The notes beneath the pieces are model-generated. The model saw only the letters and a program-made list of their open reading frames with translations. It did not search any database and was not told where the DNA came from. Of a stretch of 64,000 nucleotides of DNA, positions 221-19,696 are shown one piece after another. Source of the stretch: a virus (lineage: Duplodnaviria > Caudoviricetes); the IMG/VR virus record IMGVR_UViG_3300032309_002614, positions 25,836 to 89,835 of that record, one strand, 5' to 3'. How positions within the stretch are numbered: the stretch's first letter is position 1; each line of letters starts with the position of its first letter. A program made the translations under genes and the position numbers.

Positions 221-541
221 ATGAATAAAAGAGAGCTATTAAATAAGCTTTTGCATATTCCTAAAAAAGTTCATCCGTCATTCTGGGGTAAACAATTCAG
301 AATATTAAACTCTCTTCTCAAAAAGTTTCCAGATATGAAATTCTGGGAACAGGTTGTAGTTATTAGAGTTGATTGCCTCACTTTATATGCTGGAGAAGAT
401 GCCAATGGAATAGCTGATAAATATAAGAAATATATTTTTCAACCTGAATTAAAGAATATAGAATTTCAGCTTGGTGAAAAAGCTGGACAAGACTATAATA
501 TTATGGTAAAACCTAAAACAATTAAAGACTTTCTAAAATGA
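221..541 (+). CDS. Hypothetical protein
   Basis: 106-aa ORF after the promoter, overlaps recA start (ATGA). Confidence 0.8.
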   Translation: MNKRELLNKLLHIPKKVHPSFWGKQFRILNSLLKKFPDMKFWEQVVVIRVDCLTLYAGEDANGIADKYKKYIFQPELKNIEFQLGEKAGQDYNIMVKPKTIKDFLK

Positions 542-1713
542 GTAAAAAGAATAATAATAAAGAAGAAGTAGATAGTGGTAAAATTACTACATCTCAAGAT
601 CAGCTAAAAAGCTTCTTGAAGCAAAATAAAGAATCTCATTATAATTACGAACCAACTATTGATTACAAGGTTTCAAGCGGCAGTCTCCTGCTTGATTACT
701 TTCTAGCTGGTGGTATCGGTACTGGATTGCATCGATTCTGTGGAATCAATGAAGGAGGAAAAACGAGTTGCGCTCTTCAATTCATGAAGAACTTCTTAGA
801 TCAACCTAAGAAGCGCAAAGGATTTTATATCAAAGCTGAAGGTCGATTGAGCAATGAAATGATCACTCGCTCTGGAGTTAAGTTTGTATTCAATGAAGAA
901 GAATGGGTCGAAGGTACATGTTTTGTTTTTGAGTCAAATATTCATGAAACGGTATTTGATGCAATGCGAGAACTAGTTGGTAAGAATGATGAGAAAATGA
1001 TGTATTTCTTTCTCCTAGATTCTGTCGATGGTTTAATTAGAAAGGGTGATCTTGATAAAACCTTCGAAGAGTCGCAAAAGGTTGCTGGCGGTGCAGTAAT
1101 CGCAGCAGATCTTATGAAGCGCATGTCTATCGCACTTCAAAAGCGTGGACATATTGCAGTATTTATTTCTCAAGTTCGTGCTGATATCAAACTTGATCCA
1201 TACAGCAAGGCTCCAATTCGTCAAACGACTGCTACAGGTGGTAACGCTTTGCTACATTTTGCTAACTGGATTTTTGAATTTGATGCTCGTTTTAAGGGTG
1301 ATCTAATTCTTGAAGATCCTAACGCTTCTTACGATGAGCAAAAGAATCCATATCTTGGACACTTTGTGAAGATCGTTGTTAAGAAGTCTCCAAATGAAAG
1401 AACTAACTGCACTATTCGATATCCAATTAAATATGGAAGAAAGAATGGTACTTCTAATTGGGTAGAAAAGGAAATCTTTGATTTTCTAACTATGTGGGAA
1501 ATCGCTATTAAGAAGGGAGCTTGGATTAGCTTTGATGAAGAGTTTCTTAATACTTTAAAAGAAGCTGGCTTTACAGAATTTCCTGCTCAAATTCAAGGAG
1601 CAGCTAAGTTTGAACAAATTGTCAACGACAATGAAAAACTTAAGAATTTCTTCTTTAAGTATATCAGCGAAAACCTACTAAATTTTGGCGATGGAATTTC
1701 TATCTCTGAGTAA
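538..1713 (+). CDS. recA: RecA/UvsX-like recombinase
   Basis: SSGSLLLDYFLAGG, Walker A GINEGGKT, Walker B LLDSVD, FISQVR, TATGGNALLHFA. Confidence 0.9.
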   Translation: MSKKNNNKEEVDSGKITTSQDQLKSFLKQNKESHYNYEPTIDYKVSSGSLLLDYFLAGGIGTGLHRFCGINEGGKTSCALQFMKNFLDQPKKRKGFYIKAEGRLSNEMITRSGVKFVFNEEEWVEGTCFVFESNIHETVFDAMRELVGKNDEKMMYFFLLDSVDGLIRKGDLDKTFEESQKVAGGAVIAADLMKRMSIALQKRGHIAVFISQVRADIKLDPYSKAPIRQTTATGGNALLHFANWIFEFDARFKGDLILEDPNASYDEQKNPYLGHFVKIVVKKSPNERTNCTIRYPIKYGRKNGTSNWVEKEIFDFLTMWEIAIKKGAWISFDEEFLNTLKEAGFTEFPAQIQGAAKFEQIVNDNEKLKNFFFKYISENLLNFGDGISISE

Positions 1714-3890: not shown

Positions 3891-4944
3891 TAATCAAGCA
3901 GAGGCTATTGAAAAAACGTTGATTGATCTTGGATATCAATTATCAGATCGCGGCAAATACTGGCAATGCAATGCCGTTTATCGTGATGGTGACAATAGAA
4001 CCGCTCTACAAATTTGGAAAGATACTGGAATCTGGAAAGATTTTGTAGCCAACACTTCTTATCAACCTTTTAAAAGACTTCTTGAGCTTACTTGTAATGA
4101 TGATTCAAAGATAGAAGAAATCTTGCAATCAATTAAGACTAATAATGATCCCTGTATAGAATCAATCAGAACACCCAAAATGGAATCAGATCAATTTTTT
4201 GACCATGATGAAGTAAAAACTTTGCTTCCTCACTATGATTTTTACAACAAGAAGAACATTAGCTCTGAAGTTCTTGAGCTTTATCGTTCTGGTTTTTCTA
4301 TGTCTGGAAAGATGAATGGTCGTTTCGTATTTCCAATATTCGATGAGAATAAAAAAGTAATCGGCATCAGTGGACGACATCTATTGTGGAAGCCAAACAA
4401 TTCTGCTCCTAAGTGGAAGCATATTGGCAGAAAAGGTAATTGGATTTATCCTATAAATCTTCAAGGCGAAGAAGATAATGTGTTTAAGAAAACTATTGAA
4501 GAGAAGCGTTCGATTATTCTTGTCGAAGGAATTGGCGACAGCTTGGCTTTATCTCAGCAAGGATATTATAATCATCTAGTAGTTTTCGGCTTGGAGATAA
4601 GCTCTAAACAATTGTCTTATCTAATGTCATTGTCTATAGATGAGGTTGTTATTTCCACAAACAACGATGCAGATAAAACTGACAATCGCGGACTTCAAGC
4701 TGCCATTAAAATATTCTTAAAACTTATTAAGTATATCGATATTGATAAAGTTAAAATCAAGCTTCCTATTTGTAAAGACTTTGGTGAAATGCTAGAGAAA
4801 GGTATTACAATGGAAAGATGGCACAATAAGAAAAGAGATAGAATAACTCAAGTAGAATACATTCTTGATTATGTATATAATAACGATAAGGATAAAAAGA
4901 CAATTTCTATTCTTAAAGATTATTTAGAAAGTCTAAAGCTTTGA
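3865..4944 (+). CDS. DNA primase (TOPRIM)
   Basis: RFVFPIFD...GISGR, KWKH, LVEGIGD, NNDAD, KDFGEM; follows the helicase. Confidence 0.85.
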   Translation: MTTYLTSINNQAEAIEKTLIDLGYQLSDRGKYWQCNAVYRDGDNRTALQIWKDTGIWKDFVANTSYQPFKRLLELTCNDDSKIEEILQSIKTNNDPCIESIRTPKMESDQFFDHDEVKTLLPHYDFYNKKNISSEVLELYRSGFSMSGKMNGRFVFPIFDENKKVIGISGRHLLWKPNNSAPKWKHIGRKGNWIYPINLQGEEDNVFKKTIEEKRSIILVEGIGDSLALSQQGYYNHLVVFGLEISSKQLSYLMSLSIDEVVISTNNDADKTDNRGLQAAIKIFLKLIKYIDIDKVKIKLPICKDFGEMLEKGITMERWHNKKRDRITQVEYILDYVYNNDKDKKTISILKDYLESLKL

Positions 4945-5993
4945 AGGAAATATTATCAGCCAGTAAAATCAAGACACTAAAATCCTGCTCATGGCAGTAT
5001 TGGTGCAAGTATCTTTTAAAGCTTCCAGATAAAACAAATTCTGGAGCTTTGATTGGCGATACTGTGCATATTATTCTTGAATGTCTTGGCCTAGCCAGAC
5101 ACAAAAAACATTATGACATTATTATAAAAAAACAAAATATCTTCGCTTCAAAAGCCATCAAGAGAATGGTTTATAAACACATCAAGCGAAAGAATCTTAA
5201 TGAACAAGAGAATCTGCAAGATATTTGTTCAATGGCTCTAAAAGGATTGATGTATGACTTTTTTGGCAAAAAGTTTGGTGAACCAACGGAAGTCATTTCA
5301 GAAAAAGATTTTGAGATCACCGTTCAAGAAGAAGATATTAATTATAAGATCAAGGGTTTTATTGATAAACTCTTTATTTATGGTGATCATGGAGTTGTAT
5401 TAATTAGAGATTTCAAAACGAATAAAAAGAAATATGAAGGCAAGGAAGTAACTGATAATCTACAAGATTATATGTATACTCTTGCTATTAGAAAGCTATA
5501 CCCCCATCTTAAAGATATTAAGATGGAATTCTTGTTCTTGAAACAAGATTTAAATACTGATGGAGTTATACCCATGCAAGCTAAAGATAAATATGAGCTT
5601 CTTGGCTTTGAGCATGAACTTACTGGCTATCAAAAATATGCCGATTCTTTTACAGATAAAACTGCTATATCTAACATGGCGGCAAAGCAAGGAATGCCTA
5701 AAGATGGTAGTTTTGCTGGAAAACTTTTATGTGGCTTTGCTAAACAACCTAATCAAATTAAAAAAGACGGTACTCCAATGTGGTATTGTACTTATAAATT
5801 TGGATTTGATTATTTTGCAATTGTAGACAAAGATGGCAAAGTAAAAAAATCAGCATTTACTAAAAAAGAATTGCAGAAAATTAAACTTCAAGAAGGAGAA
5901 AAATTAATAAAAAGCAAGTACGATGGATGCCCATGTTTTAAACCTGTTGAAACTCCTGACGATTTTGATGCTTTCGATCTTGACAAGTTCTAG
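4941..5993 (+). CDS. RecB/Cas4-like PD-(D/E)xK exonuclease
   Basis: LSASKIKTLKSC, G..VH..LE, KGFIDKL, IRDFKT, Q..MY; TTG start. Confidence 0.8.
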   Translation: MKEILSASKIKTLKSCSWQYWCKYLLKLPDKTNSGALIGDTVHIILECLGLARHKKHYDIIIKKQNIFASKAIKRMVYKHIKRKNLNEQENLQDICSMALKGLMYDFFGKKFGEPTEVISEKDFEITVQEEDINYKIKGFIDKLFIYGDHGVVLIRDFKTNKKKYEGKEVTDNLQDYMYTLAIRKLYPHLKDIKMEFLFLKQDLNTDGVIPMQAKDKYELLGFEHELTGYQKYADSFTDKTAISNMAAKQGMPKDGSFAGKLLCGFAKQPNQIKKDGTPMWYCTYKFGFDYFAIVDKDGKVKKSAFTKKELQKIKLQEGEKLIKSKYDGCPCFKPVETPDDFDAFDLDKF

Positions 5994-6775: not shown

Positions 6776-7391
6776 TAAAGAACAAAAGTATATTTGTTTC
6801 GATTTTGAAACCTGTCATCTAAATCTGCTTGATGATAGCAATAAGCCTTGGCAATTAAGTTATCTGATTGCTAAAGGCAGCAATATACTTAAAGAAGTAG
6901 ATAATCATATCTATTGGCCCGATCTTAAGCTCTCAGAAGGAGCAAAGATTGTGACTCATTTTGATGAACGTAAATACCATTCGTTAGCTGCCGATCCAAA
7001 AGAAGTTCTGGAGGCTTTTGAAGATTATATTTATAATGATGAGTATCTGATTATTGGACAAAATCTATTGGGCTTTGATGTGTATATTCATAATACATAT
7101 AGAAGACTGATGGGTAAGAAAAGCGACTTCTCTTATGTTAAGAGAATTATAGATACAAACTGTATCGCTAAAGCTATTAAAAAGAATCTCAAACCTCAAA
7201 GAGATTCTGATTTTACTTTTTGGCAGTATAGATTAAATGATTTTCGCGAGAAAGGTCTAAAGACAAGCATTAAAACTCAGTTGAAAGAATACAAGATTGA
7301 CTTCGATGAGAACATGCTTCACAATTCCATGTACGACGTTCAGATGAATTTTAAGATTTTTCAGAAGCAGCTTTGGCAAATTGAAATATGA
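6762..7391 (+). CDS. DEDDh 3'-5' exonuclease (DnaQ/epsilon-like proofreading subunit)
   Basis: DFET (Exo I), GQNLLGFD (Exo II), HNSMYD (Exo III). Confidence 0.85.
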   Translation: MLRFNKEQKYICFDFETCHLNLLDDSNKPWQLSYLIAKGSNILKEVDNHIYWPDLKLSEGAKIVTHFDERKYHSLAADPKEVLEAFEDYIYNDEYLIIGQNLLGFDVYIHNTYRRLMGKKSDFSYVKRIIDTNCIAKAIKKNLKPQRDSDFTFWQYRLNDFREKGLKTSIKTQLKEYKIDFDENMLHNSMYDVQMNFKIFQKQLWQIEI

Positions 7392-9148
7392 ATTTTTTAC
7401 AAGACATTAAAACTTATGATAACGCCATGCTTCCCGGCGTTCGATTGCCACAAATCTCCATCGAAAGTAAATATTACGATTTGTTGAGCATACCCACTTC
7501 TTCAGATAATTTTACATTTCTGAAGACTTTGTGTTGCAAGAGTTTAAATAACTTAGGATTAAATAATAATCAATATGTTGAGCGAATGGAGATGGAATTG
7601 GAAATCTTCAGAGAGCTTGATTTCGTTGATTATGTACTTCTCAACTGGGATATTCTTAATTACTGCCATGAAAATAATATTCCAACTGGTGCTGGTCGTG
7701 GTAGTGCTGCGGGTTCTTTGGTTCTATTTATTGTGGGTGTTACGAAAGTTGATCCCATAAAATACGAACTATTCTTTGAGCGTTTCGTTAGCCGTTCTCG
7801 CGCTAAGAAGATTATCAAAGATGATATTACTTATCTTGATGGTTCTCTTCTTCCTGACGTAGATAACGATATCAGCTATGATAGACGCGCAGAAGTAATT
7901 AAGTATATTGAGCAGAAACATCTTGGCAAAACATCGAAGATCTTAACTCTCAATACTCTTTCTAGTAAGCTTTGTATTAAAGAGTGCGGAAAGATTGTTG
8001 GCGCTTTATCAGAAACAGATGTTAATGAAGTCAGTGACAATATTCCTAAATTATTTGGACGGGTTTTTGATTTGGAAGAGGCTTACAAAGCTAATGATAA
8101 ATTTAAAGCTTGGGTTGATCAAAATAAATTCGTATTTGAAATAGCTAAGAAGATCGAAGGACTGAATAAGAATACTGGTGTTCATCCTTCTGGTATTGCT
8201 ATTTCTTATTATAAGATCGAAGAAGTTTGCCCAGTTCAAAAGACTTCTGATGGTGATTTAGTTAGCGGCTATGATATGAATTATGTAGCCGAACTAATGG
8301 TTAAGTTCGATGTTCTTGGCTTGAGAACTTTGACTGTAGTCAGCGAAGTTTGTAAAAGACTTAATATTGAAATGACTTCTATTGATCCAGAAGATCCTTT
8401 CATTTACGAAAGCTTTCAGAATCTTCGTACTCCACAAGGTCTATTCCAAATTGAAGCGGAAACCAACTTCAAGGTATGCCGTAAAGTTAAGCCCAAGTCT
8501 CTTGAACAGCTTAGTGCGGTAGTTGCTATTGCTCGTCCCGGTGCATTGGACTTCGCTGATCAGTATGCTACATATTCAGCTTCAGGAGTATTTCAGCTTG
8601 TTCACGATTTCTTTAAAGAAGAGCTTTCATATACTGGTGGCATTCCTCTTTATCAAGAGCAGTTGATGAAGATGGCTGTGCGTTTGGGATTCACTCTTGA
8701 TGAGTCAGAGCAGTTGCGACGTATCGTTGGTAAAAAGAAGGTTGATCAAATGCCAGCATGGCAAGGAAAAATTCGTCAGAAAGTTACAGAGCAGAATTTA
8801 GATATAGCAATTGGAGACGTATTATGGAAGGTGGCTGAAGACTCAGCGAATTATTCATTTAACAAATGTTTATTACCAGAAACTGTAGTTGAAAGCAAAG
8901 ATGGTCTAAAATGTTTAAGTGAGATTAAAAAAGGAGATTCTGTTTTAGCTTATGATGTAGAAAATAATATTGATCATTTTGTACAAGTTGTAGATATTCA
9001 TAAGAATGAAGTTGAAGTCTACGAAGTGGAAATGGAAGACGGAACAAAAATTTGCTGTTCTATGGATCATAAATTTCTATGTGGAGATAAAAAAATGCAT
9101 ACTCTCAGAGATATTATTTCTCAACGTTTAGAGATTATGTGTAAATAA
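7388..9148 (+). CDS. dnaE: DNA polymerase III alpha N-terminal part fused to N-intein (split intein N-half)
   Basis: GRGSAAGSL, FERF, PDVDND, HPSG, VKFDVLGL, YQEQLM, NYSFNK then CLLPET intein block A. Confidence 0.95.
   Translation: MNFLQDIKTYDNAMLPGVRLPQISIESKYYDLLSIPTSSDNFTFLKTLCCKSLNNLGLNNNQYVERMEMELEIFRELDFVDYVLLNWDILNYCHENNIPTGAGRGSAAGSLVLFIVGVTKVDPIKYELFFERFVSRSRAKKIIKDDITYLDGSLLPDVDNDISYDRRAEVIKYIEQKHLGKTSKILTLNTLSSKLCIKECGKIVGALSETDVNEVSDNIPKLFGRVFDLEEAYKANDKFKAWVDQNKFVFEIAKKIEGLNKNTGVHPSGIAISYYKIEEVCPVQKTSDGDLVSGYDMNYVAELMVKFDVLGLRTLTVVSEVCKRLNIEMTSIDPEDPFIYESFQNLRTPQGLFQIEAETNFKVCRKVKPKSLEQLSAVVAIARPGALDFADQYATYSASGVFQLVHDFFKEELSYTGGIPLYQEQLMKMAVRLGFTLDESEQLRRIVGKKKVDQMPAWQGKIRQKVTEQNLDIAIGDVLWKVAEDSANYSFNKCLLPETVVESKDGLKCLSEIKKGDSVLAYDVENNIDHFVQVVDIHKNEVEVYEVEMEDGTKICCSMDHKFLCGDKKMHTLRDIISQRLEIMCK
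8867..9145 (+). mobile_element. Split intein N-fragment (93 aa)
   Basis: Starts with Cys (CLLPETVV), block B CSMDHKF, ends at stop codon; no endonuclease domain. Confidence 0.9.
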
Positions 9149-9152
9149 TAGC

Positions 9153-10100
9153 ATGAGCGTTTTTAAAGATGAAGGTTTAAAAAAAATCATACCTATAGAT
9201 ATTTTTAATTATTGTATAATAGACAAAAAAACAAAAAAAGAAATTACAAATCTATTTCCTTCTAGGAATGAAGGTATTTATTATTTAAATAAATTTATAA
9301 ATTTTTTATCAAAATATCATAAAATTTCTATTCAAGAATATATTGAAAAATATTTTAATGAAAAATGGCCTATTTGTCCAATATCTAAAGAACCAGTTGG
9401 CTATAAAACCACAGGAATTGGACTTGTTCTTTCTAAGTTTAAAAGAGGCAAAGTAGACAAAAACAATAGCGTGGCTTTTAGAAAAGCTTGTGAAAAGTTT
9501 TCCCAAGAAAGACTTGGTAAAAACAATCCTATGTATGGTAAAAAAGCTTGGAATACTGGATTAAAAAAAGAGACTGATGAAAGAGTGGCTATAGTAGCAA
9601 AAAAAAGAACTGGTAAAAAAATGTCTCAAGATTCAAAAGATAAAATGAAAGAAGCTAGAGAAAGACATCCTTTAAAAGCTAGGCACACTACAAAACATTC
9701 GGAAGAATCAAAAGAAAAAATGAGAAAAGCCACCATTAATCGTTGGCAAATTGGTGAATTTTCATTCAAAATTACTTCTATAGAGAAAAAAGTAGATCAA
9801 TGGCTTAAAAATAACTGCGTTAACTACGTTTTTCAACACGGTATCGGCGGTTTTGTTGCCGATTTCGTTTGCTTAGATGAAAAAATTATAATAGAATGTC
9901 AAGGAGACTTCTTCCATTGCAATCCGTGTTTTGAAAAATATGCAGAACCAAAATACGATATACAAAAAAGAAATCTATATAGAGATAAAATAAAGAAACA
10001 GAAGTATAAAGATTTAGGATGGAAGTTGATAGAATTGTGGGAAAGCGACATTAACTCTGGAGAATTTAAAAACATTTTAAGATGCGAACTCAAAAAATAA
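9153..10100 (+). mobile_element. Free-standing homing endonuclease (NUMOD3-type repeats plus Vsr-like/EDxHD nuclease) between the split-intein halves
   Basis: GKNNPMYGKKAWN, HSEESKEKMR, ADFVCLDEKIIIECQGDFFHCNP, D..K.......GW.L..LWE. Confidence 0.85.
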
Positions 10101-10195
10101 TTTCGATTAAACCTTTAGGTTTAAAAAATACTTTAGATTTAGAAGTTAACCATTCAGATCATAATTTTTATGCTGAAGGCTTAGTTTCTTCGAAC
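10082..10195 (+). mobile_element. Split intein C-fragment (38 aa)
   Basis: MRTQKIISIK..., block F TLDLEVNHSDHNF, block G VSSN followed by Ser+1 (SHS). Confidence 0.9.
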
Positions 10196-11269
10196 TCTCA
10201 CTCTATCTCTTATGCTATTTTGGCTGCGTGGACTGCTTATCTAAAATTCAAGTATCCGCATGAATTTTTCTTGGCATTGCTTCAGTTGTCTAAATATGAG
10301 CCTGATTCACATCAAGAAATTAACAAGATTTCAAAAGAGCTAGTATATTTTGATATCAAACTTTTACCTCCTGATCTAGCAAAATCTGCTCTTGATTTTA
10401 AGATTGAAGATGGCAATATTCGTTTTGGATTAAATTCTATTAAAGGCGTTTCTGAAAAGACGTTACAAGCTCTTCAGAGTTTCAGAGAAACGAATACTCC
10501 AACAAAGTTTGATATTTTTATCGCCGCTAAACAAGCTGGTATTAATATCGGTCTACTTTCTTCTTTAATTCAAGCTGGAACTCTAAGTTCATATACTCAT
10601 AGACGATCACGCTTAGTTCTTGAGGTGCAAACTTTTAATATCTTAACTGATAAAGAAAAGAAGTTCGCTTGTAGTGTTGGGCCTAAATATGACTATGATA
10701 TTTTAACTATCGTAAGTGAATGCGCTTTCAAGGGTCAATCTCTTAATGAAAGCGGTAAACCTTTCATGAATGAAAAGCGAAAAATTACATTCAAGAAAAA
10801 GTACGATGAATACAAGAAAATCTATGAACAGAACAAAGATCATGAGAAGTTCGCGAACTGGGTTTTTGAAAATAGGCTCTTAGGTTATACTCCAACTATT
10901 CGACTAAAGACTATTTTTCAGCAATCTGAGTGTACGTTTACAGATACAATGGAATTTCAATCTGCTTTTAAAGAAGACAGAGTAAAGATGGTTGGAGTGA
11001 TAGATGATGTTTATAAGGGCAAAACTAAAAAGTCTAATTCTACATTCTATAGATTCCAATTGAAAGATGAAGTTGGCAGCGTAAGTGCGATGTTTTTAGA
11101 TGGTGGAAAACACCAAAGATTAACAGAGTATCTTGAAGACGGTCTTAAAATTCCAGATAAGGAAAGTATTGTAGTTTTCACTGGCAGAAAGGGTGACGAT
11201 GTGCTATGGATAGAGAACATCGGAATCTTGGACGACAAGATCTACATGAAGTTATCTGACATAGAATGA
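10082..11269 (+). CDS. dnaE: C-intein fused to DNA polymerase III alpha C-terminal part
   Basis: SHSISYA..AYLK, LLPPDL..S, IRFGLNSIKGV, E...LGY, C-terminal OB-fold-like region. Confidence 0.93.
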   Translation: MRTQKIISIKPLGLKNTLDLEVNHSDHNFYAEGLVSSNSHSISYAILAAWTAYLKFKYPHEFFLALLQLSKYEPDSHQEINKISKELVYFDIKLLPPDLAKSALDFKIEDGNIRFGLNSIKGVSEKTLQALQSFRETNTPTKFDIFIAAKQAGINIGLLSSLIQAGTLSSYTHRRSRLVLEVQTFNILTDKEKKFACSVGPKYDYDILTIVSECAFKGQSLNESGKPFMNEKRKITFKKKYDEYKKIYEQNKDHEKFANWVFENRLLGYTPTIRLKTIFQQSECTFTDTMEFQSAFKEDRVKMVGVIDDVYKGKTKKSNSTFYRFQLKDEVGSVSAMFLDGGKHQRLTEYLEDGLKIPDKESIVVFTGRKGDDVLWIENIGILDDKIYMKLSDIE

Positions 11270-13671
11270 AAAATTTAAATTTAACACCAAGAGCGCAAAA
11301 GCTAATCAAAGAAGCTTATAAAATAGCTGTAGATCTCAAGCATACAGAGATCACGCATCTTCATTTATTTATAAGTTTTTTGAATCTTAAGCAGAGTCAG
11401 ATAGAAGAAGCATTTGGAAATTTTGGCATAGATTCTTTAAAAATAAAAAACAGTGCTATAACATTTTTAAAAATCAACACTACAGCACAAAAGAAAGCGG
11501 TAACTAAACCTTTATTATCTGAAGGCATAAAGACTATTTTTAAATGCGCCAAAACTATATCTTCAAAATTTGATCATAAATATATTGGACTAGAACATGT
11601 ATTTTTAAGTTTATTTGAAGTTCCTAATCAAACTTTTGAACTTTACTTGATTGATTATAATTATGATTTTGTTAAAGTCGTGGACTATGTTGAGCAAAAG
11701 CTAGAAGATGATGATATGTTACCAAGCGTTGAGGAGGAAATAAACAGTCCTAATGAAGCGAAACAAACTTTTGATATAAAGAAGTATAAGGTTTTAAATA
11801 CTTATGCTAATAATCTTAATATACAAGTTGTTAATGGTAAAATAAATAATCTACATCTTAATAAAGAACTGATTCAAAAGATCTCAGAAGTTCTTTGTCG
11901 CAAAAATAAGAATAATCCACTTATTGTAGGCGAAGCTGGTGTTGGTAAAACAGCTTTAGTCGAATCATTAGCGCAAGCCATCGTTAAAGGTGAGGCTTCC
12001 GATCTGCTTAGTCTAAAGCAGATTTATAGCTTGGATATTCCAATGATGATTGCTGGTTGTAAATTTCGTGGTGAATTCGAAGAGAAGATTAAAAACCTTT
12101 TAAAAGAAATCACAGATGATCCATATATTGTTCTGTTTATAGATGAAATCCACACAATCATTGGTGCTGGAAATCCAGAAAATGGCAACGATGTTGCTAA
12201 TATTCTAAAGCCTTATTTAGCTAGAGGAGAAATTAGCTGCATTGGTGCTACTACTTTCGACGAATACAAGAAGACTATATCTGATGACCCAGCTTTATCT
12301 AGGCGTTTTCAGATTATTAAAATCGAAGAACCCACTAAAGAACAAACCTTTAATTTAATCAAGAATATTAAAGGTGGATATGAAAATTTTCATGTCATAG
12401 ATTTTTCTGATGATGTTATTCATTTTATCATTAATAGTGCTGAAAAGTATATTGAAGGAAGATTTCCTGACAAAGCTTTAGATATTATTGATCAAGTAGG
12501 AGCTAAAGTTAAATTAAAGAATTTTATAAAGTCTCCTGAAATGCTTAAAATAGAAAAGAAGCTCAGTAAATTTGTTGATTCTAACAAGCAAATACGAGAT
12601 AAGAAAAAGATTACTTCTTTAGAAGATCTTCTTATCGAGTATGAAGAGTCTACAAAAAAGATGATTGCTAATTGGCGCAATAACAGATATCAAGTTACAA
12701 ATTCAGACATATTAGAAGTCGTCTCTGATAAAACCAATATTCCGGTTAATGATTTAAAATTACAAGACTTTGATAAAGTCAAGTTACTTAAAACCAGACT
12801 AAAAGAACAAGTACTTGGTCAAGACAATCAAATAGAACATATATATAAATGTTTAATAAGAGCGAAAGCTGGTTTTCGAAATCCAAATAAGCCTATTTGT
12901 TCAATGCTTTATGCTGGGCCGACAGGCGTTGGAAAAACAATGACTGCAAAAATAATTGCAGAAACTATATTTATAAATAAGAATAATTTTATAACAATTG
13001 ACATGTCTGAATACACAGACAAGACCGCCGTAAATAAACTAGTTGGATCTAGTCCCGGTTATATTGGATTTGATAAAGGTGGAGTATTAACTGAAAAGGT
13101 AAGAAAGAATCCATATTCTTTAATTCTTTTCGATGAAATTCAAAAAGCCGATCAAGATGTTTTGTACTCTTTGTTACAAATCCTTGAAGAAGGAAAGATA
13201 ACAGACTCTTCTGGAAAGACGGTTGATTTCTCTAACACTATGATTGTTATGACAACTAATATCGGTGCTGAAGTCGTCAATCATTCTGCTATAGGATTTG
13301 GAAAGCAGAAAGCTGGCAAATCTGATGTCCTTTCTTCTATCAAAAAGCATTTTCCACCTGATTTGTTAAACCGTATTGATGAAGTAGTTATTTTTGAGAG
13401 TCTTGAGCAAGAACAAATTAAATTAATCATTGATAAAGAATTACAATTATTTAAAACAGATCTAGCAGATAGAAATGTCAATATTAAATATTCTCCAGAA
13501 ATAACTAACTTTATTTTTGATAAAATACAATTTAATAACTTTGGCGCACGACAAGTTATTAAAACTATTCAACGAGAACTGCAAACACAAGTTGCAGAAA
13601 AAATGCTTGATTCTGATGAAAAATTAAATTTGGAAATTTCAGTTAAAGACAACAATATTTGTGTAATTTAA
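11266..13671 (+). CDS. ClpA/ClpC-family double AAA+ ATPase (Hsp100)
   Basis: Clp N-domain, [40 protein letters not shown] loop. Confidence 0.92.
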
Positions 13672-13883: not shown

Positions 13884-15032
13884 ATGAACGATCATAATCC
13901 TATTTACGGTATGAATCCAAATCCTCCAGTATCAAACGATACGTTTGATTTTGCGATGCCAGATATTCCTGAGCCTCCTCAATCAGAAAAACCAGAACCA
14001 AAGGACAAAGATGCGGTTGGTTTTAAATTTGGCTTTATTGGTGCTGGTCAAGGTGGCGGCAAACTAGCTGAAACGTTCTCTCAAATTGGTTATGCTCGCG
14101 TTGGCGTAATTAATACTGCTGATCAAGATCTTGCTACTATCAATGTACCAAACAAGATGAAGTTTGGTGAGCAACAAGGAGCGGGTAAGAATAGAGAGTT
14201 TGCTAAACAAGCTTTCTTGAATAGTAAAGAAGATGTCGTTGATTTTATTAAATCTTCTGTTGGTACGGATATTGATCGTATTTTTGTAACAGTTGGTGCT
14301 GGTGGTGGAACTGGTGCTGGTGTTTGCTCCGAACTTGTTAAGACGGTTAAGGAATATCAAAATACTGTAAAGGCAAGTTCTCCTTATGTTGGTCTAATTC
14401 TCGCTCTGCCAAAGCTTTCTGAAGGTAAGAAAGTTAGTCAAAATGCTTACGAGACACTAAAGGAAGCTTGTGAACTAGTAGAGCAAAAGATTGTTTCTCC
14501 TCTTATTATTCTTGATAATGAAAGAATTAATACTCTTTATCCAAAGCTATCTGTAAATAAATTCTGGCAAGTTGCAAATGCCAATATTTGTTCTCTATTC
14601 CACTTGTTTAATAATATTATAACAAAGAATAGTCAATATAGCACATTCGATACAAATGATTTCAGAACTGTTCTCGATTCTGGTATTATGGTTTTTGGTG
14701 CAGCTAACATTACTAATCATAGCAGTGAAGCCGAAATCAGTAAGGCAGTACGCGAAAATCTCAAGAGAAATGTTTTGTGCGGCGAACTTGATCTTTCTAC
14801 TGGTAGCACCGCTGCTGCTGTGGCTATTTGTGACGAAAAGACGTTAGACTATATTCCTCAAGAATACCTAGACAATGCTTTTAATCAATTAAATAGAACT
14901 TTAAAGACTAACAGCACGGTTCATCAAGGTGTTTACAAGGGTGTTAAAGAAGGTCTTTCTATTTTTACTGCAATTGGCGGCATCACGACTCCAACTGGTA
15001 AACTAGAAGCTCTTCTAAAAGCTAGTCAATAA
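13884..15032 (+). CDS. Tubulin/FtsZ-family GTPase (PhuZ/TubZ-like)
   Basis: GAGQGGG (T1), INTAD, GAGKN, tubulin signature GAGGGTGAG, LDNE, D..DFRTVL. Confidence 0.9.
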   Translation: MNDHNPIYGMNPNPPVSNDTFDFAMPDIPEPPQSEKPEPKDKDAVGFKFGFIGAGQGGGKLAETFSQIGYARVGVINTADQDLATINVPNKMKFGEQQGAGKNREFAKQAFLNSKEDVVDFIKSSVGTDIDRIFVTVGAGGGTGAGVCSELVKTVKEYQNTVKASSPYVGLILALPKLSEGKKVSQNAYETLKEACELVEQKIVSPLIILDNERINTLYPKLSVNKFWQVANANICSLFHLFNNIITKNSQYSTFDTNDFRTVLDSGIMVFGAANITNHSSEAEISKAVRENLKRNVLCGELDLSTGSTAAAVAICDEKTLDYIPQEYLDNAFNQLNRTLKTNSTVHQGVYKGVKEGLSIFTAIGGITTPTGKLEALLKASQ

Positions 15033-15046
15033 GTGTAATTAAATAT

Positions 15047-15274
15047 ATGGCTAACAATCAAGACATAGAATTTTGTTATTTTAATACTGGCACAACTATC
15101 ACTCCAACAATCGATAGAGATATTTATATCGTTTCTGCTTTAGCTTCATTTAGTGGAGATTTTGGAACTGTAACTGTAGGAGCGAATCAATCTTTGAATC
15201 CTGCTTTTCCAATTAAAATTTCTAGTCCAGTTGTCAGCGGAACTGCTAGAAGTTTGTTTTATTATTTCGATTAA
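15047..15274 (+). CDS. Small hypothetical protein (beta-rich, possibly virion)
   Basis: 75-aa ORF, GTGTAA 8 nt upstream. Confidence 0.7.
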   Translation: MANNQDIEFCYFNTGTTITPTIDRDIYIVSALASFSGDFGTVTVGANQSLNPAFPIKISSPVVSGTARSLFYYFD

Positions 15275-15285
15275 TTTTATTAGAA

Positions 15286-15318
15286 ATATCGCAGGATACT
15301 CATAATATCCTGCGATAT
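15286..15318. repeat. Perfect 13-bp inverted repeat abutting a start codon
   Basis: ATATCGCAGGATA-CTCATAA-TATCCTGCGATAT then ATG. Confidence 0.95.
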
Positions 15319-15912
15319 ATGAATCTTCAGATCTATAAGCCAAACCCTAAGAATCAGGGTTGCGCCATCAGCTTCCAAATCTCACAAAAGCCAAGTAGTG
15401 AGCCACAGTTTTATGTAAACTGTATTGCTCAACATTCTTGGAATGATCAGGCTAAGACAGGCTCATTCGCCGAGAGCCGTAACAATCCTTCAAAGACTAT
15501 CGCTATTAAGTTCAACGAGTTTGAACTTGGAGAAATGATCAACGCATTTCAGCAGAAGACTTCTTACTCTTCTTTTCATTCTAGCGAGTCAAACAAGACT
15601 CAAATTAAGCTCGCTCCCTATGAAAAGACTAAGGGAACGGGAGAGTATGCTGTTAAGTATACTGCTTTTGGTTTGTCATTTACGCGAAATGGTGCAGACA
15701 CTTTCAAGGTTCCACTAGAGCCGGGAGAAGCTGTGCGATTGATTGCTTTCATTAATAAGTTTTATTCTGTTCTTGATGACTCACGCAAGCTACCAACAAA
15801 GAGCGAACAACCCGCTCCAATAGTAAAGCGAGAAGCCGCTACTCAAAAAACTCCTCCAAAGTCCAAGAAGCCAGAACCAGTTGCTGCCGATTCCGAAGAA
15901 ATGGATTTCTAA
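15319..15912 (+). CDS. Putative Whirly-fold ssDNA-binding protein with acidic tail
   Basis: IYK..., F...E.G.MI, SFH, K.IKL.P, F.LS, F.VPL..GE...L pattern matches the two beta4-alpha Whirly repeats; flexible tail ending SEEMDF. Confidence 0.6.
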   Translation: MNLQIYKPNPKNQGCAISFQISQKPSSEPQFYVNCIAQHSWNDQAKTGSFAESRNNPSKTIAIKFNEFELGEMINAFQQKTSYSSFHSSESNKTQIKLAPYEKTKGTGEYAVKYTAFGLSFTRNGADTFKVPLEPGEAVRLIAFINKFYSVLDDSRKLPTKSEQPAPIVKREAATQKTPPKSKKPEPVAADSEEMDF

Positions 15913-17807
15913 TGCGTAAAAAACGGGTTTTAATTCATAGCAATTTTTGCAAAATGTTTACTGGCTTTGGTAAGCATAAAAAGAATCTATTATCTTATCT
16001 ATACAAGACCGGCAAATACGATATTATTGAATTAAGTAATGGATATACTTGGGAATCTGAACAATTAAAATTTGTTCCTTGGAGGTCTTATGGTACTTTA
16101 CCAGACGATCCAGAGATTCATAAGGAAATTGCTATTGATGAAAGGCGTAAAAATGCTGCTGGTTATGGCGCAGAAATGATTGATCATGCAGTAAAAGAGT
16201 TAAAACCCGATATTTATTTAGGCATTGAAGACGTTTGGGCGTTCAACGGTTTTGTAGAAAAAGAATGGTGGAATAAAGTTCATTGTATTATTCATACCAC
16301 TTTAGACAGCTTACCAATCCTTCCTGATGCTGTATCAATAGCCCCTAAAATAAATCATTATTTTGTATGGGCTTCTTTTGCTGAAAAAGCAATGCACAAA
16401 CTTGGACATACTAATGTAAAAACAGTACATGGCACATTGGATACAGATTCTTTTTATAGACTTAGCGATGAAGATAGAAAAAAGATTCGTGCGCGTTTCA
16501 AGTTAGATCAAGAATTTATTATTGGTTTCGTTTTTAGAAATCAATTACGAAAGTCAGTTCCTAATTTGCTTGATGGATTTAAATTATTTCAAACTGCGAA
16601 TCCAAATTCAAATGCCAAACTTCTTTTGCATACTTATTGGAATGAGGGGTGGGATATTCTTAAGTTATTGAAGGAGAAAGAAATTGATCTAAAAAATATA
16701 TTAACAACTTATGTTTGTAAAAACTGTAATGGATATCATGTTAAACCATTTGCAGCGCACATTATAAATTGCGATTATTGTCGCGCACAAAATAGTTGTG
16801 AAACAACTAATGTAAAAACAGGAGTAAATGAACAACAGTTGAACGAAATATATAATCTTATGGATGTATATTGTCATCCATTTACTTCTGGTGGGCAAGA
16901 AATACCTATTCAAGAAGCAAAGCTTACTGAATTGATAACACTTGTTACTAATTATAGTTGCGGTGAAGATTGTTCTACTGAAGAGAGTGGCGGCTTTCCT
17001 CTTGAATGGGCTGAATACAGAGAGCCGGGAACGCAATTTATTAAAGCGTCTACTTTGCCAACAAGTATTTTTTCTTATTTGCAGTATGTATATAATTTAT
17101 CTTCAGAAACTAGAAAACTATTAGGTAAAAAAGCTAGACAATTCGTAATAGATAATTATAGTATAGAAGTTGTTGGCAAGTTTTTCGAAGATTTATTTGA
17201 TAGTCTGCCTGAAGTAAATTATGTCTTTGAAAATAAAAAGACAAAATGCAATCCATTTTACGATGTAAATGAAAATTTAAAAGATAAAGAATGGGTGGAG
17301 TCTTTATACGAAAACATTTTAACTAAAAAAGATCCTGTTGGAGTAACTCATTGGGTTCAAAGATTAAACACTGATCTTAAAAGATCTGATGTTCTAAATT
17401 ATTTTAGAAAGATAGCTACGATAGAAAATCAAAATGCATTTCTTAATGAAATGTTAGAATCTTTGAAAGAAAATAATAATTGTAAAAAAATTGCTTTTGT
17501 ACAACCTGAAGGTGCAGAAGAAATAATTATAGCAACATCTTTGGTATCATCAATTAAGAAGCTTTATCCAGAACACGATATTTATTTTTTTACTAAATCA
17601 GAATACTTTGATATTATAAATTCTCATCCAGATGTGAAGAAAGTTCTTAATTACTTCGACAAAATGAATGATCCTTTATTTTTTGAAGGCAAAGGATCTG
17701 GTACTAAATATTTTGATATAGTTTATGCCCCTCATTTGTCAATAAATAACAATTATTTTAGAAACGGCGAAGATAAGCTACAATATAACGTTTATGAATC
17801 TAACTGA
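15912..17807 (+). CDS. Multidomain glycosyltransferase (GT4-like plus C-terminal GT9-like N-half)
   Basis: FRNQLRK, YNLMDVYCHPFTSGGQEIPIQEA; CKNC/CDYC insert; IKKLYPEHDIYFFT..YFDII..HP.V.KV. Confidence 0.8.
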   Translation: MRKKRVLIHSNFCKMFTGFGKHKKNLLSYLYKTGKYDIIELSNGYTWESEQLKFVPWRSYGTLPDDPEIHKEIAIDERRKNAAGYGAEMIDHAVKELKPDIYLGIEDVWAFNGFVEKEWWNKVHCIIHTTLDSLPILPDAVSIAPKINHYFVWASFAEKAMHKLGHTNVKTVHGTLDTDSFYRLSDEDRKKIRARFKLDQEFIIGFVFRNQLRKSVPNLLDGFKLFQTANPNSNAKLLLHTYWNEGWDILKLLKEKEIDLKNILTTYVCKNCNGYHVKPFAAHIINCDYCRAQNSCETTNVKTGVNEQQLNEIYNLMDVYCHPFTSGGQEIPIQEAKLTELITLVTNYSCGEDCSTEESGGFPLEWAEYREPGTQFIKASTLPTSIFSYLQYVYNLSSETRKLLGKKARQFVIDNYSIEVVGKFFEDLFDSLPEVNYVFENKKTKCNPFYDVNENLKDKEWVESLYENILTKKDPVGVTHWVQRLNTDLKRSDVLNYFRKIATIENQNAFLNEMLESLKENNNCKKIAFVQPEGAEEIIIATSLVSSIKKLYPEHDIYFFTKSEYFDIINSHPDVKKVLNYFDKMNDPLFFEGKGSGTKYFDIVYAPHLSINNNYFRNGEDKLQYNVYESN

Positions 17808-18987
17808 AAAAATGGCCTTGGATTGTGGAGTTAAGATTTCACAACCTTATCTTGATAGATATTTTCTTCCAGTAAGAAATGATAATTATATAATAATTGA
17901 TACACGTTGCAAAAGTGCAACTGGTGAATACGATTACTTTAACGATGTTCTTGATTTAATAAAGCCATATTTAAAAGAAGCTGGTATTGATATTTTTCAA
18001 ATAGCTACTGATAAAAACGTAAAACTAGCTTGCGATAAATGTTTCATCACGATTAATAAAAAACAAGAAAACTATTTAATATCCAAAGCTAGACTTTTAA
18101 TTTCTAATGAGAATTATAGTTTGCATATAGCTTCGGTATTTAATACGAAATCTATTGGCTTATATTCTTTATTTAATCCAATCAATACCAGACCAGTTTG
18201 GAACACGAATTCTCAAATCATCCTTGAATCACATAGAGATGGTAATCTTCCTTCTTATGGACGATTAAATGAATCGCCAAAAACGATTAATTTTATTAGT
18301 CCATACGTTATAGCAAAAAATATTTTAGATTCTCTTGGCATATCTAACGATCTTGAGCGTTTTGAATTGGTTCATTTGGGCAAGAGTTTTAATCAAAAAA
18401 TTGTAGAAATTGTTCCTGATTTTATTTCTGATGCGAATTTCATGAAAGAAAGATCTATTAATTTAAGGCTCGATTACGTTTCTAACTTAAATTCGTCTGT
18501 TTTTAATTATTGGATGACCAATAGAAAGGTGAATATTATTACTAATAAAGATATTAATATTAATATGATTGCTCCTTATAGAAATAATATTCTATTAATG
18601 ACTATAATATTGTCTGAAAATATTTCTGAAAAATTTTTAAAACACTGTAAATCTATAGGTTTAAAATTAAAAATCTTTTGCGACGTTAAAGATAAGCTGG
18701 AAGAGTATAGATTTAAATTTTTAAATTGGGAAGTTCATCAAGATTTTGAAAATGAAGGTTCTTTAAATAAACTAGACACTCTTTCTCAAAAGTCTAAATT
18801 TATAAGCTCAAAAATTTTAATTTCCAAGGGTAAACAATTTTCTTGCAAAGCTAACTATTTCGCAAATAAACATCTTGACAATTCTGAAGAATCTGTTATT
18901 CTGTCAAAAGAATTCGAACAAGAAATAGAATTCTTTAAAATTTACAATGAGCGAAAAGAATCCACATCTAGTACCTCAGTCGCGTAA
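17794..18987 (+). CDS. GT9/heptosyltransferase-like protein (C-terminal GT-B half) plus extension
   Basis: YIIID, ISKARLLISNENYSLHIASVFNTKSIGLYS resembles the GT9 I..A...IG.DSG..HLA..... motif. Confidence 0.55.
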   Translation: MNLTEKMALDCGVKISQPYLDRYFLPVRNDNYIIIDTRCKSATGEYDYFNDVLDLIKPYLKEAGIDIFQIATDKNVKLACDKCFITINKKQENYLISKARLLISNENYSLHIASVFNTKSIGLYSLFNPINTRPVWNTNSQIILESHRDGNLPSYGRLNESPKTINFISPYVIAKNILDSLGISNDLERFELVHLGKSFNQKIVEIVPDFISDANFMKERSINLRLDYVSNLNSSVFNYWMTNRKVNIITNKDININMIAPYRNNILLMTIILSENISEKFLKHCKSIGLKLKIFCDVKDKLEEYRFKFLNWEVHQDFENEGSLNKLDTLSQKSKFISSKILISKGKQFSCKANYFANKHLDNSEESVILSKEFEQEIEFFKIYNERKESTSSTSVA

Positions 18988-19696
18988 CGCATGGGGTTTA
19001 ATTGAAGGCGTAGACTATAAAACAAATGAAGACGGCTCAATCAACTGGCGAGCAATGGTTAAGGCAGAGCATCTGTTCCCGAATAGAGGATGGTTTGAGT
19101 CTCGTAAGCAGCAGATGCCCACTTCCATTGAAGGTCTTGCTGATAACCAGCTTCTTATCAAGCTTGCTGGCATTAAAGAGCTTGCAAAACTCCGAGGATA
19201 CACAAGCGTAAAATATGATGTAGTTAAGTGTGAAGCTTCTTATGTATCTATTAAGTGCGGTATAACTTGGATTCCAAATTATGAATCAGAATATGAAAGT
19301 TACTACGAAGATATCGCAAATGCTACAGTCAATAATACTTCAGATTTTGCTGTCAAATTTTTGGAGACGATTGCAGCTAATCGTGCATTCGTTAGGGCTG
19401 TAAGAAATTTCCTTAACGTACACATCGTAGGTAGCGATGAAATTGACGCTTCCAAGAAAGGCACTCCTTCAGTATTTGAAGACGACAATGAAGTAGCTCT
19501 ACCTTCTTCTCAAGGAATGCTGGAGAAGACTGCTAAAAATTCTGGATTATCTTCGTTTGAAGAGTTTCAAGAATATCTTCGAAATGCTTGGAAGGTTGGT
19601 GTTTACAAGAATTCTGATGCTAAAGTCTGGACTTGTTACAACGATATTCCTGCAAAAGAAGCTAGAATTCTAATGTCAATTCTAAAAGATAAGTGA
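18947..19696 (+). CDS. Possible single-strand annealing (Rad52/Sak-like) protein
   Basis: LIKLAGIKELA, A.A...N......ETIAANRAFVRAVRNFL..; weak family resemblance. Confidence 0.4.
   Translation: MSEKNPHLVPQSRNAWGLIEGVDYKTNEDGSINWRAMVKAEHLFPNRGWFESRKQQMPTSIEGLADNQLLIKLAGIKELAKLRGYTSVKYDVVKCEASYVSIKCGITWIPNYESEYESYYEDIANATVNNTSDFAVKFLETIAANRAFVRAVRNFLNVHIVGSDEIDASKKGTPSVFEDDNEVALPSSQGMLEKTAKNSGLSSFEEFQEYLRNAWKVGVYKNSDAKVWTCYNDIPAKEARILMSILKDK

Follow-up and report, generated by a model that had tools for sequence, protein, structure and literature searches.

Plant Whirly proteins (StWhy1, which is the p24 of PBF-2, StWhy2 and AtWHY1/2/3; Pfam family PF08536; structures 1l3a, 3n1h, 4kop and 4koo) consist of two β4-α repeats and assemble through their helices into tetramers, and the plant literature either calls them plant-specific or dates their origin to the ancestor of green plants or Chloroplastida (PMC11135702, PMC11359715, 10.64898/2026.10.24.761589). 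Their superfold is shared with MRP1/MRP2 and PC4-like proteins, which act on single strands by annealing or melting them, and phages are already known to have Whirly-fold proteins, namely ChmC of the Chimalliviridae (PhiPA3 gp61, phiKZ gp67; PMC11077065) and an uncultured-phage protein so labelled in BFVD. The OB-fold single-stranded DNA-binding proteins (SSBs; PF00436) are tetramers in which the core is followed by a low-complexity linker and an acidic tip ending in Phe, as in the DDDIPF of the E. coli protein and the C-terminal Phe of T7 gp2.5. Here we describe, in a 64,000-nucleotide stretch of a tailed phage genome (IMG/VR record IMGVR_UViG_3300032309_002614, record positions 25,836-89,835; the whole stretch is termed the window), a gene at 15319..15912 on the plus strand whose product of 197 amino acids (plus stop) joins a Whirly-family core to an SSB-type tail. 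We consider it very probable that the product belongs to the Whirly family, forms tetramers, binds single-stranded nucleic acid and has a tail of the SSB type.

The phage protein resembles the plant Whirlies in its two-repeat fold, in the motifs E.G..I, FH and (V/I)P...(A/G)E, in its predicted helix-mediated tetramer and, presumably, in non-specific binding of single-stranded DNA (ssDNA) for genome maintenance beside a RecA-type recombinase. It is about 14% identical to the solved Whirly structures, and it differs from them in having no transit peptide, in a conserved extra β-hairpin (QxSWN...GSF, residues 38-50) and in a disordered linker and acidic aromatic tip in the style of bacterial SSBs. 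The KGKAAL motif of Whirly first strands is also not kept but replaced by YKPNxKNxGxA; the window protein reads IYKPNPKNQGCAISF (YKPNPKNQGCA), with only Y-K and a later Ala in common, although a few relatives do have YKGK or FKGN. With the OB-fold SSBs the protein shares the order of core, low-complexity linker and acidic Phe-ending tip as well as the tetrameric state, and some of its relatives bear literal ...DDDIPF or ...EDAPF tips; unlike them it has a Whirly-fold core, and the tip of the window clade (relatives of at least 60% identity), ...EEMDF, has no Pro. ChmC is alike in being a phage-encoded Whirly-fold homotetramer with a disordered C-terminal region, and unlike in its β3-α repeats, RNA preference and condensates (PMC11077065); no sequence link between it and the window protein was found. 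The MRP, PUR and PC4 proteins show no sequence signal to the window protein and none has an SSB-type tail, and the PC4-like protein of phage T5, implicated in recombination-dependent replication, is a type II inter-chain dimer of single repeats, unlike the two-repeat phage protein (PMC7549692).

The protein divides into a basic core (residues 1-157, 15319..15789; pI 9.2, net charge +5), a disordered and little conserved linker rich in Pro and Lys (residues 158-187, 15790..15879) and an acidic tip of the SSB docking type, VAADSEEMDF (residues 188-197, 15880..15909; net charge -4). An alignment of 30 homologues (45-94% identity) has the same conserved core, a linker variable in both length and sequence, and an acidic tip in which the last-residue Phe is invariant, and the charge pattern of basic core and acidic tip is seen again across 77 diverse relatives. 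Residues K7, G14, Q38, W41, G48, F50, E69, H87 and E137 are conserved family-wide. The ATG at 15319 is the real start because all homologues open with M[NS][LVI]x[IL]YKPN, and the stop codon overlaps the ATG of the next gene (TAATG). The gene is single-copy, with no paralogue within the window or in G001, a syntenic relative of 127.7 kb (88% complete). The original prediction, made by eye from the letters, had put a Whirly-like ssDNA-binding protein with an SSB-like acidic tail at this locus, and the open reading frame (ORF) and all the motifs it quoted lie at exactly these coordinates: IYK (residues 5-7), FNEFELGEMI (65-74), SFH (85-87), KTQIKLAP (93-100), FGLSF (117-121), FKVPLEPGEAVRL (129-141) and the Pro/Lys linker ending in SEEMDF.

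Used singly, the window protein found nothing useful in Pfam, PHROGs, the PDB sequences or a tblastn search of 50,697 phage records, and its link to Whirly emerges at the level of the family. An exhaustive phmmer search (E up to 0.001) gathered relatives in 409 clusters at 50% identity, and a profile of 77 family members (A2), run against 177,635 distinct PDB sequences, gave exactly four matches, all of them Whirly proteins (WHY2, StWhy2, WHY1; E 0.0025-0.13). The HMMER profile alignment to AtWHY2/StWhy2 places NEFELGE on TEVGSLI, SFH on FFH, GF.LS on GYFISLS and F.VPLEPGEA on F.VPVT.AEF (PGEA with KAEF), which reproduces the second half of the pairings that had been made by eye; the N-terminal pairing of IYK with YKG falls outside the aligned span. 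Singly, 8 of the 77 members match Pfam Whirly (E <1). One, P0268, reaches 24.8 bits, against a curated cut-off of 23, in an alignment that covers model positions 23-135 of 136, and its match to the window protein has E 2.1e-11; a second, P0192, scores 19.7 bits against the same cut-off. No relatives of P0268 were found among viral contigs, and a second profile search, of a set of 5.8 billion proteins, returned close relatives only and no Pfam labels. Since the family profile matches only Whirly proteins in the PDB and P0268 passes the Pfam threshold, the homology of the window protein to Whirly, as judged from sequence, is transitive but real.

The predicted structure agrees. An AlphaFold2 model built from the 30-homologue alignment has a mean predicted local distance difference test score (pLDDT) of 84, with values above 90 in the core and below 50 for residues 162-179, in the linker, and 187-197. 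It shows the two β-rich repeats, each with a helix, that had been proposed from the letters: strands 2-7, 15-22, 30-37 and 60-65 with helix 67-79 in the first, and strands 83-88, 93-105, 112-123 and 127-133 with helix 135-156 in the second, the small additional hairpin lying at residues 38-50. Foldseek against the PDB (E up to 0.001) returned only Whirly (StWhy2, AtWHY1/2/3, PBF-2), MRP1/2 and PUR-alpha. VIA-align, an independent all-against-all structure aligner, ranks StWhy2 first (Z 15.4, root mean square deviation (rmsd) 2.4 Å over 133 aligned residues), followed by PBF-2 p24 (Z 15.0, 2.9 Å, 138), MRP (Z 14.3, 3.2 Å, 130) and PUR-alpha (Z 7.9, 4.9 Å, 118), and every match ranked under PUR-alpha has Z of 7.7 or less. 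Structure prediction with comparison to Whirly, PC4 and MRP structures had been proposed as the check on the fold, and in it strong structural matches were confined to Whirly, MRP and PUR. Among the viral models of BFVD the top match is the uncultured-phage protein, whose label there is 'Whirly transcription factor'; proteins of jumbo phages (e.g. Pseudomonas phage EL) match weakly, at TM about 0.36-0.40. The core contains no OB fold, as it has no PF00436 or PDB sequence match and its predicted fold is that of Whirly. The Whirly-fold identity of the original prediction is thus borne out both by structure matches and by a remote sequence homology specific to Whirly.

As to oligomeric state, for which a tetramer and a 24-mer had both been suggested, four copies of residues 1-160 are predicted to form a Whirly-like tetramer, with an interface score (ipSAE) of 0.93 in each of three runs compared to 0.00 for three controls. 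Contact agreement between runs is at least 98% and partner pLDDT is 89-90, and the contacts are made through helices 67-82 and 134-158, the site of the invariant NEFELGE and PGE motifs. In calibration 20 of 30 proteins solved as same-chain pairs and 1 of 23 solved as single chains attained the ipSAE mark, a setting from which the tetramer job departs in its four copies and custom alignment; moreover, as Whirly tetramers have already been solved, the pass may partly reflect likeness to them. With these limits, a helix-mediated homotetramer is predicted.

The acidic tail is a family trait of the SSB type and not a chance feature. Among representatives of 50%-identity clusters, surveyed in two length classes, an acidic tip with an aromatic residue in the last three positions (usually the very last) is present in 69 of the 83 of at least 180 amino acids and in only three of the 48 of 140-179 amino acids. 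The ending is PF in 24 of the 69 tipped long representatives, including the literal sequences DDDIPF, DDDLPF and EDAPF. Tips in the window clade read ...EEMDF, DEVEF, EEDEF, EDSEF and EEYEF, those of distant clades are mostly ...[DE][AV]PF, and one clade is tailless. The SSB-like tail of the original prediction is accordingly confirmed, by the invariant Phe of the 30 aligned homologues as by this survey. The family is large and phage-restricted. Relatives are encoded by 407 IMG/VR contigs and lie on contigs of 112-206 kb, with sizes of 172-179 kb noted for relatives of the window clade; tblastn of the 50,697 phage records found none in a cultured phage. In 185,579 species genomes the gene was met on only three contigs of metagenome-assembled genomes (MAGs), whose taxon labels disagree and which are probably mis-binned phage DNA. 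The phage itself is a tailed double-stranded DNA virus without a close cultured relative (the best matches of its DNA polymerase III (Pol III) alpha are at most 35% identical), and its gene content includes a large terminase subunit, tail fibres, ribonucleotide reductase and carbamoyltransferases.

The proposal that the phage may use a Whirly-fold SSB gains support from what the window clade lacks. PF00436 is detected in none of 11 records of this clade compared to 29 of 33 records of other clades, and in the window and G001 we found no SSB-like ORF and no OB-fold SSB, gp32 or Enc34-type SSB. In G002-G004 the gene order is kinase, sigma-like gene, SSB, with the SSB directly beside the sigma-like gene, and in G002 and G003 it lies between this gene and a glycosyltransferase gene. 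In G001, G005 and G006 the homologues of these two flanking ORFs (sigma-like and glycosyltransferase) overlap each other, so that no SSB could fit between them, and this empty syntenic slot means that the absence is not merely a sampling gap. As all clades share a Pol III alpha replicase, without PolB, the empty slot indicates that the ordinary SSB was lost in the ancestor of the window clade and the Whirly-type protein retained, with a change of its tip at about the same point. The proposal does not extend to replacement in every case, since elsewhere the two proteins coexist. Where they do, their tips are alike (e.g. ...DEAPF beside ...EDEVPF), which suggests that both dock to the same partners. 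The idea that tailed forms replace the SSB and tailless forms accompany it was rejected, because G002 and G003 have a tailed Whirly-like protein together with a tipped OB-fold SSB; the split between SSB-present and SSB-absent genomes follows clade, not tail. Separately, the phages with a tailless Whirly protein (G004, G023, G038, G040, G043) have a divergent OB-fold SSB of 157-170 amino acids scoring about 38-51 bits to PF00436, that of G004 (L083 1489-1938) ending ...FEQEFEF, and tail state and SSB type seem to co-vary. A 128-residue ORF of G001 (L084 7588-7974, minus strand), beside the empty slot, was the top but insignificant match to a small SSB profile and was discarded, being by eye Hsp20/alpha-crystallin-like.

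Downstream the Whirly gene is followed, all on the plus strand, by a glycosyltransferase-like gene with a GT1/GT4 core and DUF4214 (631 amino acids, 15912..17807), a GT9-like gene (397 amino acids, 17794..18987) and a gene for a protein of 249 amino acids (18947..19696). Of 26 diverse loci 25 keep this block, in many cases with the stop codon of one gene overlapping the start of the next, and no other neighbourhood is conserved throughout the family. The 249-residue protein shows higher conservation than the Whirly protein (48-54% identity across distant clades). Its model (mean pLDDT 78) is closest in Foldseek to RAD52 and Mgm101, which occupy all of the top 16 rows (best E 1.2e-3, prob 0.91), and the top eight in VIA-align include RAD52 (Z 7.3, rmsd 4.5 Å, 118 aligned), Mgm101 (6.1), the Red-beta N-terminal domain (5.8) and Sak (5.7 and 5.5). 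Because Z-scores of this size are rated as common by the tool, double-stranded RNA-binding domains score similarly and sequence support is lacking, a role as a single-strand annealing protein of the Rad52/Mgm101/Red-beta/Sak type is probable, not proven. The C-terminal helices (residues 186-249) weakly match the Red-beta C-terminal domain, at Z 3.9 in its entry with lambda Exo and Z 4.1 in its entry with an SSB peptide. By its title, PDB 8tfu is the complex of the latter domain with an SSB C-terminal peptide; an interaction of Red-beta with E. coli SSB has been reported (PMC6393309), and SSB C-terminal tails serve as a constraint for finding RecET systems (PMC13490951). If the 249-residue protein anneals strands, the block couples an SSB-like protein to an annealing partner and offers a concrete candidate for tip docking.

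In the window clade the Whirly protein is the only phage-encoded SSB candidate and therefore probably fulfils the general function of an SSB, in replication as in recombination. The window and G001 encode a full replication and recombination set of a UvsX/RecA-like recombinase (538..1713 in the window, plus strand), DnaB, the primase DnaG (3865-4944), a PD-(D/E)XK exonuclease (4941..5993, plus strand), a PHP domain with an epsilon-like exonuclease, and Pol III alpha, of which the recombinase, DnaB, primase, exonuclease and Pol III alpha are within 15 kb upstream of the Whirly gene. The exonuclease is the only other window ORF with an acidic, aromatic-ended C-terminus (DDFDAFDLDKF; DDEFDLDKF in G001), and this Phe-rich tail may be a second docking motif. 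We think it rather likely that replication and recombination in the phage have the Whirly protein as their SSB-like hub, whereas the stronger proposition, that it is the sole SSB at the fork, we put somewhat short of even. In such a mechanism the β-sheet blades of the tetramer would bind ssDNA without sequence preference; in the absence of DNA the acidic tip would fold back onto the basic surface, and on DNA it would be freed to recruit partners, like the C-terminal tips of bacterial SSB and T7 gp2.5. Likely partners would be other proteins of the phage: the probable annealing protein encoded by the third gene of the downstream block, the PD-(D/E)XK exonuclease and UvsX-like recombinase, and a replisome of DnaB, DnaG and Pol III alpha. 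In related clades the Whirly-like protein would work beside a normal SSB.

Several observations weigh against this reading. The window protein itself has no Pfam Whirly match (E up to 10), and the Pfam Whirly model matches nothing in G001-G005. The loss of the SSB is one evolutionary event, not 11, and the records are incomplete (23-88%); the phage could, besides, borrow the SSB of its host. Most related phages have a normal tipped SSB in addition to the Whirly-like protein, which is therefore not inherently 'the' SSB. Its only conserved neighbourhood across the family consists of glycosyltransferase-like genes, joined in distant clades by sugar-nucleotide and tail-fibre genes and not by replication genes, and its proximity to the replisome genes is specific to the window clade. 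The annealing assignment rests on middling fold scores, with no Pfam, PHROG or PDB sequence match, and ChmC, the one studied phage Whirly-fold protein, prefers RNA (PMC11077065).

The coexistence with a canonical SSB in 29 of 33 records of other clades, and the linkage in 25 of 26 loci to a protein that is probably a Rad52-type annealer, speak for a specialised recombination and repair accessory, which would work with the annealing protein and the UvsX-like recombinase and leave the fork to the host SSB. It would be comparable to the plant Whirlies, which protect against error-prone repair and, according to a preprint (10.64898/2026.10.24.761589), stimulate RecA strand exchange. We nonetheless regard a purely accessory role as unlikely for the window protein, as its clade lost the phage SSB yet retains a full phage replisome, and the tail is of the type found on general SSB hubs.

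Expression of the gene appears to be regulated at its start. A hairpin with a perfect 13-bp stem and a 7-nt loop (15286..15318, plus strand; arms 15286-15298 and 15306-15318) abuts the Whirly ATG, the last stem base being one before the start codon. Its RNA fold has an energy of -18.6 kcal/mol (z -4.4), and it is the only perfect, non-overlapping 13-bp stem-loop listed in an inverted-repeat scan of the window. Across 12 distinct relatives 93.5% of cells pair, with changes on both sides in 5 of the 13 pairs, values that none of 500 shuffles reaches and that compare to pairing in 19-56% of cells for slid controls; Rfam holds no family matching it. The sequence CATAAT in the loop was considered as a -10 box and rejected: the loop is not conserved among relatives, which makes a promoter function improbable. 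Promoter prediction upstream of the Whirly gene gives no site of the sigma-70 type, and few starts in the window have a Shine-Dalgarno motif (8 of 53). A motif, GTGTAAWWAW, is present in nine copies in the window against 2.7 expected (on the plus strand at 9139, 15033, 21679, 23035, 32575 and others), and five copies start exactly 14 nt before an ATG. One of these, GTGTAATTAA at 15033-15042, is 14 nt before the ATG of an ORF of 75 amino acids (15047..15274, plus strand) whose conservation upstream of the Whirly gene is confined to the window clade and which is probably co-transcribed with it. The motif is likely to be a phage promoter or initiation signal with very short leaders, and the Whirly transcript probably starts at the copy upstream of the 75-residue ORF. 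The hairpin is likely to be either an operator acting on translation or an element for stabilising or processing the mRNA, and the level of the Whirly protein, taken to be abundant, would probably be set by it; autoregulation of T4 gene 32 is a conceptual parallel.

A structured RNA element at the gene's own start codon also fits a protein that mainly binds RNA, as an mRNA chaperone, annealing or transport factor like ChmC or the trypanosome MRP1/2. MRP is a near-equal structural match (Z 14.3), ChmC, itself a tetramer with the Whirly fold, has a higher affinity for RNA than for ssDNA (PMC11077065), and a tubulin gene is located just upstream of the Whirly gene. The sequence homology is, however, to Whirly and not to MRP, tips of the DDDIPF type mark hubs of DNA metabolism, and the pattern of SSB loss fits a DNA role. 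The tubulin, moreover, is not PhuZ-like, its sole cultured-phage match being a remote one to gp138 of Bacillus phage G (26% identity). An RNA-directed function is on balance improbable, with a slim chance of being right.

The genes upstream of the Whirly gene vary by clade. In the window clade they are ClpB-like, tubulin-like and the 75-residue ORF; in the distant clade a HAD-nucleotidyltransferase fusion and a WavE-like gene lie upstream, and a tail-fibre gene lies downstream of the block. Could the Whirly protein then serve the glycosyltransferase operon, for example as a platform that recruits sugar transferases to phage DNA while it is nascent or single-stranded, or in some function that does not involve nucleic acids? 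The order Whirly, GT1/DUF4214, GT9-like in 25 of 26 loci, often with overlapping codons, the sugar-nucleotide genes of the distant clades, and the presence of a dUTPase (19698), a dCMP deaminase (26526) and a C5-methylase-like gene (35443) near the glycosyltransferase pair (15912-18987) are consistent with this, but nothing indicates that the transferases act on DNA, many sugar-modifying genes lie elsewhere in the phage genome, and shared ancestry alone could explain the synteny; we judge the idea very unlikely. The weakest alternative, a decoy whose tip mimics the host SSB tail to titrate SSB-interacting enzymes or blunt defences that watch phage SSBs, takes its appeal from the near-copies of bacterial SSB tips in related phages (DDDIPF, EDAPF) and is hardly credible, since a decoy needs no conserved basic tetrameric nucleic-acid-binding core and the window-clade tip has diverged from the bacterial ...PF to ...[DE]F.

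Our literature search found no paper on phage Whirly-family proteins with SSB tails. New here are the clade-level loss of the OB-fold SSB with its empty slot, the conserved block with a probable annealing protein, and the covarying start-codon hairpin. A large phage family homologous to Whirly reopens the question of Whirly's origin, in a form testable by phylogeny. One speculative answer, which we hold to be possible but doubtful, is that Whirly was not a plant invention and would descend from an old and diverse phage family of SSB-like proteins, the window clade preserving the ancestral job as the sole, non-OB-fold SSB of a Pol III-type replisome whose tip docks the Red-beta-like C-terminal domain of a co-transcribed annealing protein; the plant organellar Twinkle helicase-primase, said to be phage-derived (PMC12230644), provides a parallel. 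The SSB-like reading would also make this a clean case of non-orthologous replacement affecting a replication protein that ranks among the most conserved, with the same linker-and-tip module on a different DNA-binding fold in a family of which one clade has dropped its OB-fold SSB, and the loss is a natural experiment on the requirements of an SSB hub. Pairs of SSB and annealing protein for recombineering could be drawn from the family, and annotation pipelines will report such phages as having no SSB.

Other features of the window and G001 are recorded here in their own right. G001 has two NodU/CmcH-like carbamoyltransferase genes (L084 16560-18143 and L089 3267-4838), part of an unusually rich sugar-modifying set. 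The tubulin/FtsZ/TubZ-like gene of the window (13884-15032) lies 287 bp upstream of the Whirly gene and has 84% identity to its counterpart in G001. Pol III alpha, a single intact ORF of 854 amino acids in G001, is in pieces in the window (7388-11269): the ORF at 7388-9148 has the NTPase and finger domains, with an intein-splicing match at its end, that at 10082-11269 is the HHH_6 C-terminal part, and between them lies a NUMOD3/DUF559 homing-endonuclease-like ORF (9153-10100). The arrangement points to the insertion of an intein or endonuclease, or possibly to a split intein. The polymerase gene is followed directly by a ClpB/Hsp104-type double-AAA+ chaperone gene (801 amino acids, 11266-13671), whose conservation is limited to the window clade.

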